64,000 nt of DNA from assembly GCA_963713615.1 (NCBI GenBank), contig CAVQMM010000001.1:2304001-2368000 (forward strand), written 5' to 3'. Under the pieces are notes generated by a model. That model worked only from the letters and a program-made list of their open reading frames with translations, had not been told where the DNA came from and did not search any database. Below are positions 27,108-62,617 of the stretch, one piece after another; within the stretch, counting starts at the first letter, position 1, and each line of letters opens with the position of its first letter. The DNA comes from an uncultured Chlamydiae bacterium (GTDB lineage Bacteria; Chlamydiota; Chlamydiia; Chlamydiales; JAJFMA01). The translations under genes were made by a program, and so were the position numbers.

Positions 27108-27414
27108 TGAATTTTAAGCCCTACAAGCCCTCACAATGGTGTCAAGCAGCGCTTTACGGTCGCTCTTGAATGGACCAAAGGGACATAAAAGACATAAAGG
27201 ACTATGCCTGTTCCCATTGTCTAGACCAAAATGAGCTTAGCTTTTGTCCATTTCGTCCATAGCCCAAAGCCATTCAATAAAGCTGTTACTTGGAAAAGAA
27301 CAATGCGGATCCCTTCCCAGGCCCGAAGGGTCGATATTGCAACAGGCCAGGGCATCGCCCCATAGGCCTCAACCTAAGCCTAACAATCGTATCTCGGCGC
27401 GCAGCGCTTTGGAG

Positions 27415-29292
27415 CGGAAGTTCACCCCTAATTTCCCCACTACTTTGATCGTATTGTGATGAATATAAATGCTTTGCATCACTATTTTTCCGAAAAAATG
27501 TAGTCACTAAAATAATTATTCAAATATCATCTAAAATATATTGTAGATATATTTATTATGCGTATAATGTAGTCCAGTTATATGATGGAAACTGTATGTA
27601 CATTGCAAAATCAACGTCCAAGTCTAAGTCTGGAAAGGTTTACGAGTCTATTTTGCTTCGTGAATCATATAGAGAGGGCACAAAGGTTAAAAACCGCACA
27701 CTGGCTAATCTTTCAGGGTGTTCTAAGAGTGATATTGAGGCTATTAGGCTAGGTCTGAAACATAAGGACAATCCTACAATCTTGTCCAAGGACAGTTTTA
27801 GCATTGTTCAGGGCAGATCAGTTGGAGGAGTGTTCGTTCTAAAGCAATTGGCAGACAGTCTTGGGATCACAAAAGCCCTAGGTGATAGTTTCCACGCTAA
27901 ACTTATCCTTTGGCTTGTCTTCGCAAGGATTCTTGAGCAAGGCTCTCGCCTGTCGGCGGCAAGACTGGTCCTAATCTATGATATTGCCTCCATAATCAAC
28001 CTCAACCGAGGTTTTGATGAAAATGACTTTTATCAAAGCCTGCATTGGGTAGCCAAAAATCAAAGTTCCATTGAGAATTCGCTTTTCAGGCTTAGGCGTT
28101 ATTCTGGGCAATTTTACTGGTACGATGTAACAAGCTCATACTTTGAGGGCACGCAAAATGCCTTGGCTGCCTATGGACACAACCGCGACAAGAAGAAAAG
28201 AAAGAAGCAGGTCGTTATAGGACTGTTAAGCATCAATAATGGAATGCCAGTCTCCGTCGAGGCCTTTGCAGGCAATACCCAGGACACTCTGACTTTTCAA
28301 AATCAGTTAGACAAAATTAAAGCCAGATTTGGCTGCAAGAACGTTGTCCTAGTTGGTGATAGAGGAATGATTCGGAACAAGCAGAAGCTATTGCTAAAGG
28401 AATACGGGTTTGGATATGTCACAGCCTTGACTCTTCCTGAGATGAAATCGCTAATAGGCGCAGAGATTCTTTGTCTGGATACATTCACGAAAGATCTTCA
28501 ATCGATTTGTCTTGAAGGCAAGAGATACATCTATCGGCGCAATCCTGGACGTGCTTTAGAAACCCAATCACAAAGAGAAGAACGCCTATCTACCGCTCAA
28601 AGGCGCGTGGATCAAGAAAACAAAAAACTTGAGTCTAAGCCTACAATGTCAGCGGTGCTGGCAAAGAATCGAATACGACAATATCTAAAAAAACTATGCA
28701 TTGCAGAGTGGGTCAGTGTTTCCGTCGAAAAAAGGCAATTACGTTTAGAGATCGACCAGGAGCGGCTAAAAGAAAAATCTAAGTTTGACGGTTGTTACGT
28801 ATGGACAACGGAATTAGGTAAGGAAGAAGCTTCTGACCTAGAAATTTTCGAACGATACAAAGACCTAAAATACGTTGAGGATGATTTCAGAACCTTCAAG
28901 AGCAATTTTTTGGAAATCAGGCCGATTTATGTAAGAACAGTAGAGAGCACCAAGGGGCACATATTTATCACTATGCTGGCTCATATGATTGTAAGAGAGC
29001 TGCGTTCAAGGTTAGCTGAAGTAAATATGACTGCAGAAGAGGCCCTGCGAGTGTTAGGCCTTATATGTCAAAATTCAATAAAGTGCTCAGATGCGGTGAC
29101 CATTGAAATGATCCCTGCCCCCTCCAAGGAGGCCACTAACATTTTGAGCGCTCTACAAATTACCATGCCAAAGCAAATCCAGGTGGCCACAAGTAATGTA
29201 GTCACTAGACACAGGACAAGAAAAGGCCTCTAAAAGTCGAAAAATCAACACTTTAGGTAGGTGTTTTTTTCAAAAACAGGGGTGAACTTCCG
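27415..29292 (+). mobile_element. IS1634-family element, copy 1 (1878 bp)
   Basis: TIRs CGGAAGTTCACCCC / GGGGTGAACTTCCG; 6-bp TSD TTGGAG (27409-27414, 29293-29298). Confidence 0.93.
27596..29233 (+). CDS. IS1634-family DDE transposase
   Basis: LRESYRE...KNRTLANLS, YDVTSSYFEG, GHNRD, VGDRGM, YKDLKYVEDDFR, IRPIYVR. Confidence 0.92.
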   Translation: MYIAKSTSKSKSGKVYESILLRESYREGTKVKNRTLANLSGCSKSDIEAIRLGLKHKDNPTILSKDSFSIVQGRSVGGVFVLKQLADSLGITKALGDSFHAKLILWLVFARILEQGSRLSAARLVLIYDIASIINLNRGFDENDFYQSLHWVAKNQSSIENSLFRLRRYSGQFYWYDVTSSYFEGTQNALAAYGHNRDKKKRKKQVVIGLLSINNGMPVSVEAFAGNTQDTLTFQNQLDKIKARFGCKNVVLVGDRGMIRNKQKLLLKEYGFGYVTALTLPEMKSLIGAEILCLDTFTKDLQSICLEGKRYIYRRNPGRALETQSQREERLSTAQRRVDQENKKLESKPTMSAVLAKNRIRQYLKKLCIAEWVSVSVEKRQLRLEIDQERLKEKSKFDGCYVWTTELGKEEASDLEIFERYKDLKYVEDDFRTFKSNFLEIRPIYVRTVESTKGHIFITMLAHMIVRELRSRLAEVNMTAEEALRVLGLICQNSIKCSDAVTIEMIPAPSKEATNILSALQITMPKQIQVATSNVVTRHRTRKGL

Positions 29293-60585: not shown

Positions 60586-62463
60586 CGAAAGTTCACCCCT
60601 AATTTCCCCACTACTTTGATCGTATTGTGATGAATATAAATGCTTTGCATCACTATTTTTCCGAAAAAATGTAGTCACTAAAATAATTATTCAAATATCA
60701 TCTAAAATATATTGTAGATATATTTATTATGCGTATAATGTAGTCCAGTTATATGATGGAAACTGTATGTACATTGCAAAATCAACGTCCAAGTCTAAGT
60801 CTGGAAAGGTTTACGAGTCTATTTTGCTTCGTGAATCATATAGAGAGGGCACAAAGGTTAAAAACCGCACACTGGCTAATCTTTCAGGGTGTTCTAAGAG
60901 TGATATTGAGGCTATTAGGCTAGGTCTGAAACATAAGGACAATCCTACAATCTTGTCCAAGGACAGTTTTAGCATTGTTCAGGGCAGATCAGTTGGAGGA
61001 GTGTTCGTTCTAAAGCAATTGGCAGACAGTCTTGGGATCACAAAAGCCCTAGGTGATAGTTTCCACGCTAAACTTATCCTTTGGCTTGTCTTCGCAAGGA
61101 TTCTTGAGCAAGGCTCTCGCCTGTCGGCGGCAAGACTGGTCCTAATCTATGATATTGCCTCCATAATCAACCTCAACCGAGGTTTTGATGAAAATGACTT
61201 TTATCAAAGCCTGCATTGGGTAGCCAAAAATCAAAGTTCCATTGAGAATTCGCTTTTCAGGCTTAGGCGTTATTCTGGGCAATTTTACTGGTACGATGTA
61301 ACAAGCTCATACTTTGAGGGCACGCAAAATGCCTTGGCTGCCTATGGACACAACCGCGACAAGAAGAAAAGAAAGAAGCAGGTCGTTATAGGACTGTTAA
61401 GCATCAATAATGGAATGCCAGTCTCCGTCGAGGCCTTTGCAGGCAATACCCAGGACACTCTGACTTTTCAAAATCAGTTAGACAAAATTAAAGCCAGATT
61501 TGGCTGCAAGAACGTTGTCCTAGTTGGTGATAGAGGAATGATTCGGAACAAGCAGAAGCTATTGCTAAAGGAATACGGGTTTGGATATGTCACAGCCTTG
61601 ACTCTTCCTGAGATGAAATCGCTAATAGGCGCAGAGATTCTTTGTCTGGATACATTCACGAAAGATCTTCAATCGATTTGTCTTGAAGGCAAGAGATACA
61701 TCTATCGGCGCAATCCTGGACGTGCTTTAGAAACCCAATCACAAAGAGAAGAACGCCTATCTACCGCTCAAAGGCGCGTGGATCAAGAAAACAAAAAACT
61801 TGAGTCTAAGCCTACAATGTCAGCGGTGCTGGCAAAGAATCGAATACGACAATATCTAAAAAAACTATGCATTGCAGAGTGGGTCAGTGTTTCCGTCGAA
61901 AAAAGGCAATTACGTTTAGAGATCGACCAGGAGCGGCTAAAAGAAAAATCTAAGTTTGACGGTTGTTACGTATGGACAACGGAATTAGGTAAGGAAGAAG
62001 CTTCTGACCTAGAAATTTTCGAACGATACAAAGACCTAAAATACGTTGAGGATGATTTCAGAACCTTCAAGAGCAATTTTTTGGAAATCAGGCCGATTTA
62101 TGTAAGAACAGTAGAGAGCACCAAGGGGCACATATTTATCACTATGCTGGCTCATATGATTGTAAGAGAGCTGCGTTCAAGGTTAGCTGAAGTAAATATG
62201 ACTGCAGAAGAGGCCCTGCGAGTGTTAGGCCTTATATGTCAAAATTCAATAAAGTGCTCAGATGCGGTGACCATTGAAATGATCCCTGCCCCCTCCAAGG
62301 AGGCCACTAACATTTTGAGCGCTCTACAAATTACCATGCCAAAGCAAATCCAGGTGGCCACAAGTAATGTAGTCACTAGACACAGGACAAGAAAAGGCCT
62401 CTAAAAGTCGAAAAATCAACACTTTAGGTAGGTGTTTTTTTCAAAAACAGGGGTGAACTTCCG
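60586..62463 (+). mobile_element. IS1634 copy 3 (1878 bp)
   Basis: TIRs as in copy 1 (one mismatch on the left); TSD CTCCAA (reverse complement of TTGGAG) at 60580-60585 and 62464-62469. Confidence 0.93.
60767..62404 (+). CDS. IS1634-family transposase
   Basis: Protein identical to 27596-29233 in the ORF track. Confidence 0.92.
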   Translation: MYIAKSTSKSKSGKVYESILLRESYREGTKVKNRTLANLSGCSKSDIEAIRLGLKHKDNPTILSKDSFSIVQGRSVGGVFVLKQLADSLGITKALGDSFHAKLILWLVFARILEQGSRLSAARLVLIYDIASIINLNRGFDENDFYQSLHWVAKNQSSIENSLFRLRRYSGQFYWYDVTSSYFEGTQNALAAYGHNRDKKKRKKQVVIGLLSINNGMPVSVEAFAGNTQDTLTFQNQLDKIKARFGCKNVVLVGDRGMIRNKQKLLLKEYGFGYVTALTLPEMKSLIGAEILCLDTFTKDLQSICLEGKRYIYRRNPGRALETQSQREERLSTAQRRVDQENKKLESKPTMSAVLAKNRIRQYLKKLCIAEWVSVSVEKRQLRLEIDQERLKEKSKFDGCYVWTTELGKEEASDLEIFERYKDLKYVEDDFRTFKSNFLEIRPIYVRTVESTKGHIFITMLAHMIVRELRSRLAEVNMTAEEALRVLGLICQNSIKCSDAVTIEMIPAPSKEATNILSALQITMPKQIQVATSNVVTRHRTRKGL

Positions 62464-62617
62464 CTCCAAAGCGCTGCGCGCCTATTTACGAAGTTAGTTG
62501 CTTAAGTTGATGCCTATGGCTTGACTACTCACGAAGTTATGCTGGATTTCTCAATCGAGCTCTCGTACGATGAACAAGTCGATAAGTTACGTCTGACCTG
62601 GGCTAGCTCTCAGCTTG

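Follow-up and report, generated by a model that had tools for sequence, protein, structure and literature searches.

Within the 64,000-nucleotide stretch of DNA analyzed here (the window), which derives from an uncultured Chlamydiae bacterium (GenBank assembly GCA_963713615.1, contig CAVQMM010000001.1, positions 2,304,001 to 2,368,000), lie three copies of an IS1634 insertion sequence (IS) of 1,878 bp that we call element A. Each of them interrupts a member of a family of short palindromic sequences, repeat A, which occurs mostly as inverted doublets whose two arms are ~170-180 bp apart. An arm consists of a GCGC-GNA-GCGC mini-hairpin, a linker (TTTGGAGT) and a 7-8-bp GC-rich hairpin. The 3.97-Mb source genome of the window is denoted G000 and its contig C1. 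The features that define the three insertions are the following.

27409..27414, + strand: left target duplication of copy 1, TTGGAG
27415..29292, + strand: element A copy 1, intact, 1,878 bp, left end toward the upstream mini-hairpin of repeat A
27596..29233, + strand: transposase gene of copy 1, 545 amino acids, putative catalytic residues D177, D255 and E428
29293..29298, + strand: right target duplication of copy 1, TTGGAG, after which the repeat-A hairpin follows
29470..29487, - strand: empty partner arm of the copy 1 doublet
39290..39295, + strand: target duplication of copy 2, upstream side, TTGGAG
39296..41178, - strand: element A copy 2, 1,883 bp, frameshifted, in the opposite orientation to copy 1 relative to the target
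41179..41184, + strand: target duplication of copy 2, hairpin side, TTGGAG
43640..43657, - strand: empty partner arm of the copy 2 doublet
60410..60427, + strand: empty partner arm of the copy 3 doublet
60580..60585, - strand: target duplication of copy 3, hairpin side, reading CTCCAA on the + strand
60586..62463, + strand: element A copy 3, 1,878 bp, with an intact open reading frame (60767-62404), in the right, minus-strand arm of its doublet
62464..62469, - strand: target duplication of copy 3, upstream side, reading CTCCAA on the + strand

As a first-pass annotation of the window had described, each copy is bounded by an exact 6-bp duplication, TTGGAG for copies 1 and 2 and its complement CTCCAA for copy 3, and all three duplications lie inside GCAGCGCT-TTGGAG-TGCG. 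The 15-bp terminal inverted repeats (CGGAAGTTCACCCCT) are found in all three copies, with a 1-bp loss in copy 2 and a G3A change of the left repeat in copy 3. The left end faces the GCAGCGCT side in copy 1 and the TGCG side in copies 2 and 3, which bears out the earlier statement that copy 1 is reversed with respect to the other two. The use of two spacer subtypes and of both arms, likewise claimed at that stage, is also evident: copy 1 occupies one type of doublet spacer and copies 2 and 3 the other, a left arm being used by copy 2 and a right arm by copy 3.

The transposase of element A scores 290 bits against the NCBIfam model NF033559 for IS1634 (cut-off 100) and just 19 bits against the IS4 model. 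Its residues D177, D255 and E428 are invariant across 53 homologs, and a YREK-like motif is present (Y421-K-D-L-K-Y-V-E428-D-D-F-R432). The predicted structure (mean predicted local distance difference test score, pLDDT, of 85) has the Tn5 transposase as its closest fold (E 1.5e-6); a sequence search of the PDB gave nothing under E 0.2. The length of 1,878 bp, the 15-bp terminal repeats and the 6-bp duplication are all those of an IS1634 element, and by these sequence characters element A is assigned to that family. The varied AT-rich targets of the family, which are seen for distant relatives and for a second IS1634 element of the same genome (element B), are not those of element A, whose target is a fixed TTGGAG at 8/8 loci.

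These eight loci were revealed by a BLAST search of the entire genome, which gave seven full-length copies of element A and one without its first 1,108 bases. Every copy is in repeat A, none has a flank outside that repeat, and all 15 true ends adjoin TTGGAG or its complement; the broken end of the truncated copy also adjoins the hexamer. In the classification of Tobes and Pareja this is an association of type 1, for which four or more copies must all share one repeat position. Sites of the sequence TTGGAG number 3,277 on the two strands of G000, with 355 (10.8%) of them within repeat A, and the chance that seven of seven copies with matched duplications would fall there is 1.8e-7 when measured against TTGGAG sites and 2e-19 against YTNNAR sites, the copies being treated as independent. 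Empty arms with matching flanks and a single TTGGAG are numerous in G000, and joining the two flanks of element A rebuilds an intact repeat at every locus except that of one hybrid copy. This copy (C1:2387913-2389790, on a long contig) has the upstream side of repeat A on both flanks, which likely reflects the loss of the doublet interior; to judge from the flanks, a deletion of that interior or a recombination between two co-oriented copies is a likelier origin than an inversion. The copy at 60586 is 21 kb from the hybrid one, and an inversion involving these two was considered and rejected, for the exchange of their inner flanks gives no matched duplication.

The pattern is one of repeated independent insertion, because the copies differ in orientation, flanks, arm type and sequence variant. 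Relative to the target, two copies are oriented one way, five the other way and one has the hybrid flanks. Outward flanks of different copies have no more than 59 identical bases in common, and no two copies agree in arm type, orientation and outer flank. There are seven different arm-plus-orientation contexts; both arms of one doublet type are occupied, and one arm type holds element A in both orientations at different loci. Two sequence variants, distinguished by three shared substitutions, are each present at more than one locus. The earlier suggestion that the insertions were at least partly independent is thus supported, and the derivation of all copies from a single insertion is not. One could still suppose that there has been no active targeting, and that one or two chance insertions were spread by recombination or by mobilization of doublets, or that insertions elsewhere were purged by selection. 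The doublets are indeed numerous and near-identical, the hybrid copy indicates that rearrangement occurs, and four of the eight copies lie within 60 kb. Nonetheless this supposition is very improbable: it must contend not only with the contexts, orientations and short shared flanks just described, but also with the recurrence of the motif in a further six genomes or metagenome contigs, whose elements are only 46-64% identical, and with the persistence of element B at varied sites, some of them in long reading frames. Moreover, selection would not fix one nucleotide. Passive spread is already largely refuted, and we regard the active targeting of the repeat-A hexamer by element A as nearly certain.

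Element B is present in nine copies, with nine different 6-7-bp duplications; none of these is at TTGGAG and one is in a doublet spacer. Stop-free frames of 272-566 amino acids run across four of the nine empty sites, one of these frames being another IS gene. Hence the hexamer is no sink for every IS1634 element, and insertions outside the repeats do persist.

Some further observations concern the copies of element A and their kin in G000. The four neighboring copies (C1:2331415-2389790) border a region in which duplicated Rhs-like segments are plentiful, and local hopping is a possible explanation of their clustering. At C1:109822-109900 a single-copy remnant of ~80 bases resembles the right end of a different, diverged and older-looking element of IS1634 type; it sits at the identical base after TTGGAG in repeat A. 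A third gene of the family (C1:155648-157306) is also single copy and is 24% identical to that of element A. Among contigs from four public runs, those of X1 and X2 show junctions of element ends with repeat A, and one X1 contig extends 15 bases past the right end; these junctions may come from the same population as G000 and add little weight.

Relatives of element A were taken from GTDB genomes (the best 80 of 91) and from metagenomes (the best 80 of at least 275), and 137 of these 160 loci gave at least one junction. Inside the branch to which element A belongs, nine of nine distinct junctions have WTGGAR or its complement, versus 8/221 outside it, a comparison whose Fisher value overstates the contrast since kin are not independent. 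The outside junctions fit HTNNAD in 186 of 221 cases and YTNNAR in 143. On the hairpin side, the branch junctions all continue with TG, which none of the five such WTGGAR matches outside the branch does. The close relatives with repeat-motif junctions have 46-64% identity to element A. At loci L104 and L106 a TGCGG hairpin comes after TTGGAG, and at L106 the site belongs to an inverted doublet. TTGGAA is seen in Parachlamydiaceae repeats at L024, L025 and L103 (18 copies in genome G061 versus 0 for the control), and ATGGAG at L065 (73 copies versus 1 in G004). The nearest relative with flanks, 64% identical and found in G356, gave three contig-end junctions; the flanks at all three agree with upstream sides of WTGGAG-TGCGG repeats from G356 itself (139 copies, versus 4 for the reversed control). 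The inspection of flanks that the first-pass annotation had proposed, for genomic copies and homologs alike, therefore came out in favor of its claim, at 8/8 copies, 9/9 distinct junctions and 3/3 contig ends. For the relative in G181 (46%, in a near-complete genome), 21 of 21 ends lie in AT-rich flanks of unique sequence. A 12-base end pattern applied to 401 genomes yielded mostly chance matches in coding DNA, with new junctions from G356 only; the viral contigs searched had no relative, and two plasmid records had relatives at ~35% identity.

In a tree of 45 transposases, which came from a quick search, is unrooted and without bootstrap or clade test, and has its "generic" labels assigned by eye, seven repeat-inserted rows are on one side of a branch and 34 generic rows on the other, with support of 99-100 in the SH-like approximate likelihood ratio test (SH-aLRT). 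A tree of 78 rows has the same split. Elements B and C, L010, L215, four duplicates and most homologs without flanks were dropped from the smaller tree, and the close rows L026, L105 and L107 have no flanks on their own contigs. Taken together, the junctions and the tree suggest that the IS1634 branch of element A likely has its own landing-site preference.

The repeat that serves as target is abundant in G000, with 283 exact cores and 366 within two mismatches, and it has the character of a high-copy intergenic hairpin. Two uninterrupted doublets in the window are:

1456..1650: empty repeat-A doublet, cores 1456-1473 (+ strand) and 1633-1650 (- strand), a single TTGGAG per arm
13695..13888: empty repeat-A doublet, cores 13695-13712 (+ strand) and 13871-13888 (- strand)

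The tetranucleotide one base from the foot of the hairpin is GGAG. The canonical foot of those repetitive extragenic palindromic (REP) repeats which accompany REP-associated tyrosine transposases (RAYTs) is GTAG or GTGG, with atypical feet in other classes (10.1101/279083, PMC4690160); GGAG was not found as a REP foot in the accessible portions of the RAYT literature (PMC8266576, 10.1101/279083, PMC4690160). A GGAG foot for a published group 3 REP was considered and rejected, as GGAG is absent from the consulted text of PMC8266576. One of the six Y1 transposase loci of G000 is flanked by repeat A, with three inverted copies on each side (3 + 3). This RAYT locus, L006 (C1:3256290-3257560; gene near C1:3256600-3257170), encodes a protein that narrowly passes the model NF047646 (83.7 bits, cut-off 80). 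Near the Y1 loci of G004, G061, G356 and G409, whose assemblies are fragmented, targeted repeat motifs were found in 0 of 20 cases, and the link to a RAYT consequently applies to G000 only. We consider repeat A to be, on its sequence features, a RAYT-associated REP-like repeat with a non-canonical foot, which the RAYT may cut. The sequence WTGGAGTGCG exceeds its control in G356 (139 versus 4), G002 (34 versus 6) and G003 (24 versus 7), which suggests a GGAG REP family across the Chlamydiota.

Repeat A also exists in aberrant forms. At ~19 sites of G000 (e.g., C1:170486, 844992, 1232044) the mini-hairpin and TTGGAG are followed by CCCCAACCGAC and no hairpin; none of these holds element A. Certain empty repeats carry a tandem duplication of the target, the units being 0-4 bases apart (window 29303-29319; C1:452540, 1244325, 3118153, 3191207 and 3688204; L103 and L188). 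Examples are hexamer-A-hexamer in G061 and G409, and 8-mer-A-8-mer at the IS66 site in the window. Such duplications may be footprints of excision or products of slippage.

How does the element find its site? Copies of the branch are located at WTGGAR followed by TG, and we propose, with a probability of roughly 0.6, that a single transposase with a DDE (aspartate, aspartate, glutamate) active site would find this site by direct readout of the DNA sequence. This appears likelier than recognition of a cruciform, because it is WTGGAR-TG, and not the hairpin context, that is conserved across hosts. The first-pass annotation had envisaged a DDE transposase that recognizes either a REP sequence or a cruciform; its first option gains from the relatives, and the second is less supported. 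TTGGAG fits the YTNNAR preference of the family, and the narrowing of an existing preference is therefore the simplest history: an ancestor with a loose YTNNAR preference would have given rise to a branch restricted to WTGGAR-TG(C). In these hosts that motif would mostly mark the foot of REP-like repeats, which are abundant and intergenic. The two cuts of a transposase dimer would span the hexamer at a distance of 6 bp, and the TG(C) side could be read by one subunit or the other, so that both orientations would be permitted. Because the duplication includes the entire GGAG foot, both foot and hairpin are regenerated and no gene is broken. In G000, 72% of the sites of the 8-bp motif TTGGAGTG and 87% of those of TTGGAGTGC are within repeat A; seven of seven then has p = 0.10 and 0.37, respectively, and can therefore be explained without structure. 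A comparison of 28 branch proteins with the generic set gives a number of discriminating residues, among them R260, K262 and K264 (following the second aspartate), W403 with T404, and K425 with Y426 (preceding the catalytic glutamate); there are differences at many other positions as well. Their location makes those near the active site candidates for contact with the target DNA.

A number of points weigh against this reading, including the kinship of the relatives and the provisional nature of the tree that were mentioned above. The hybrid flanks of L025 and L065 are in draft assemblies and are possibly misjoined. G181 has no Y1 transposase match, and the repeat target is perhaps simply missing there, as it may be in the genomes of other distant relatives. 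The motif WTGGARTG is too loose to account for the pattern, since 28.8% of its sites in G000 are in repeat A and seven of seven would have a chance of 1.7e-4; element A must therefore read more bases or some structure. All seven matched sites in G000 carry the full repeat, so that sequence and structure are inseparable there, and every branch target seen is in a palindromic repeat, as recognition of structure also predicts. Finally, element A is not the only user of repeats in this genome. An unrelated IS66 element has 17 of its 18 copies in G000 at one register of the repeat-A hairpin, in both orientations and with one hybrid, and the ends seen of its relatives (50-63% identity) in other Chlamydiota have unique flanks; this use of repeat A hints at a property of the repeat or of the host. 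Similarly, an IS110 element (window 30185-31950) is found at 9/9 loci at one base, between CCCTTC and GGGC, of a second palindromic repeat, and G000 may favor or retain insertions in repeats generally.

Alternatively, the transposase might read few bases and depend on a hairpin or cruciform that is extruded beside or around the hexamer, or it might follow a mixed rule of sequence and structure. All eight sites in G000 and all branch targets elsewhere are, as such a requirement would demand, in palindromic repeats. In one repeat subtype the fold consists of two hairpins joined by unpaired TTTGGAGT, the GCGC-GNA-GCGC mini-hairpin has a variable middle base in its loop and a stem that is preserved, and the consensus 8-mer is by itself insufficient for element A. 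We consider this rather unlikely nevertheless, for the place of the hexamer relative to the stem varies (at the foot in GGAG repeats, and by eye in the loop of a different stem in the Parachlamydiaceae TTGGAA repeats), folding energies are ordinary (z = -1.69 to 0.00 in four of four arms, two of which fold differently) and TTGGAGTG(C) is statistically enough (p = 0.10 to 0.37). The upstream mini-hairpin is missing at the targets in G356, L106 and L104, which rules it out as the determinant; ~35 half-repeats of G000 that have the mini-hairpin and lack the TG-hairpin hold no copy of element A, an absence that is uninformative (0.9^7).

A repeat-bound host protein such as the RAYT could also recruit the transposase or open the DNA, the complex setting the point of insertion. 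The flanking of a RAYT gene by 3 + 3 inverted copies of repeat A, the crowding of IS66 into the same repeat, and the Y1 transposase matches in all four branch-member genomes searched, versus none in the one generic genome searched, would agree with this; so would the fact that the hexamer holds the foot tetranucleotide and comes directly after CT, the RAYT cut site in other systems (PMC8266576). Such recruitment seems unlikely all the same, given that element B ignores the site in the same cell, that the 6-bp duplication and YTNNAR-type hexamer are traits of the IS1634 family and not of an HUH enzyme, that 0/20 Y1 loci in the four fragmented assemblies are near targeted motifs, and that the CT before the hexamer is not conserved in G356 or G004. 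Elements of the IS110 family are RNA-guided. A guide RNA or DNA carried by element A and pairing with its target in that manner is most improbable: the nucleotide precision within a repeat does resemble that of IS110 (PMC1525189), but in four of four elements the non-coding ends match the target over no more than 5-8 bases, a length reached by 9.5-99.5% of shuffles (exact matches only; split guides escape), and both the two orientations and the 6-bp duplication fit ordinary DDE strand transfer.

The IS66 element in the window shares a repeat-A arm with a copy of element A:

41201..43494, - strand: IS66 element in the hairpin of copy 2's repeat-A arm, with an 8-bp duplication; an unrelated second user of the repeat

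Two arms hold both elements (window 39296-43494 and C1:3104660-3107747), and in both the copy of element A is defective, frameshifted in the one and truncated in the other. The truncation stops exactly at the target duplication, recreating CT-TTGGAG. IS66 is in two of seven arms with element A and in 17 of ~366 arms overall; its lone site outside repeat A has GT-G-AA in common with the repeat site. The second palindrome, that used by IS110, is often beside repeat-A doublets, and two of the IS110 loci are split by further insertions.

A bolder reading, which we advance as doubtful speculation, is that the branch would be a specialized parasite of a widespread non-canonical GGAG/GGAA REP system, reading the hairpin-foot signal of the RAYT or the RAYT-bound repeat; the duplication would rebuild that signal and so provide a self-renewing safe landing site, and a few active-site residues would make a loose DDE transposase site-specific. 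The choice of REP sequences by protein-only DDE transposases is still poorly understood, and the main value of the present system is its natural pair of targeted and untargeted sisters. These have 41-47% identity, near-identical ends, the same 6-bp duplication and a short list of differing residues, and the gain of specificity is therefore testable by swaps. The branch adds IS1634 to the families that use REPs, with a target motif kept across hosts while the surrounding repeats diverge, and it points to a GGAG-footed REP family in the Chlamydiota. With a single protein and a target of 8-10 bp, such an element might also be of use as a compact integration tool.

Repeat A is like the known RAYT or TnpA-REP systems in its short hairpin, its tetranucleotide one base from the foot, its inverted doublets, its hundreds of copies and its position flanking a RAYT (PMC8266576, 10.1101/279083, PMC4690160), and unlike them in the foot itself, GGAG in place of their GTAG or GTGG. 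As for its occupant, the first-pass annotation was right that REP targeting is known for members of IS3 and IS110, but the phenomenon is wider: the association was described for IS3, IS110, IS4, IS256 and IS5 (Tobes and Pareja 2006, PMC1525189), a list from which, in the portions available, IS66 is absent. All copies of IS1397, ISKpn1 and ISPsy8 (IS3) and of IS621, ISPa11, ISPpu9, ISPpu10 and ISRm19 (IS110) are at one REP position, and for IS1397 and ISKpn1 evidence is cited that the transposase sets the specificity (PMC1525189). These elements differ from element A in transposase family and chemistry, and their duplications are of 0-3 bp in the cases described. A close DDE precedent is ISRm22 of Sinorhizobium meliloti 1021 (IS4 family), which has 9/9 copies in REPs, 6-bp direct repeats and some hybrid flanks (PMC1525189). 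Both are single-gene DDE elements of the IS4-related group, with all copies in REPs, 6-bp repeats and hybrid copies; ISRm22, however, inserts at the axis of the palindrome and element A, an IS1634, at an asymmetric foot outside the stem, and no branch-wide conserved target is reported for ISRm22 in the accessible text (PMC1525189).

The IS1634 family was described as having elements of 1.5-2 kb, ends starting with C, a long transposase, a YREK motif without the arginine and a 5-6-bp duplication (De Palmenaer et al. 2008, PMC2266710), and in all these traits element A agrees with it. The targets given there are AT-rich tracts of 5-6 bp, with long variable repeats for IS1634 and IS1549, and unlike element A no fixed target or REP association is mentioned in the sections consulted (PMC2266710). 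Other accounts of IS1634 members, likewise seen in part, give 6-bp repeats or no target rule (PMC3281130, PMC4549789, PMC8024623). No report of REP targeting by an IS1634 element was found in a literature search whose scope excluded ISfinder, TnPedia, subscription reviews and supplements, and an earlier report is possible; papers that name both IS1634 and "repetitive extragenic palindromic" draw no link between them in the passages available. ISPlr1 of Planktothrix, which is tied to REP-like repeats, was rejected as an IS1634 precedent, being an ISAs1 element. The acquisition of a landmark by one subgroup of a DDE family has a parallel in the ISAba32 subgroup of IS1202, which targets XerCD sites, adjoining xrs (bioRxiv 10.1101/2022.12.17.520857): there too a subgroup with 5-6-bp duplications gained a specific chromosomal landmark, although the family is another and the target is xrs. 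The landing of insertion sequences in REPs is thus already known from several families; to these is added a repeat-targeting IS1634 branch in which the target motif is conserved.

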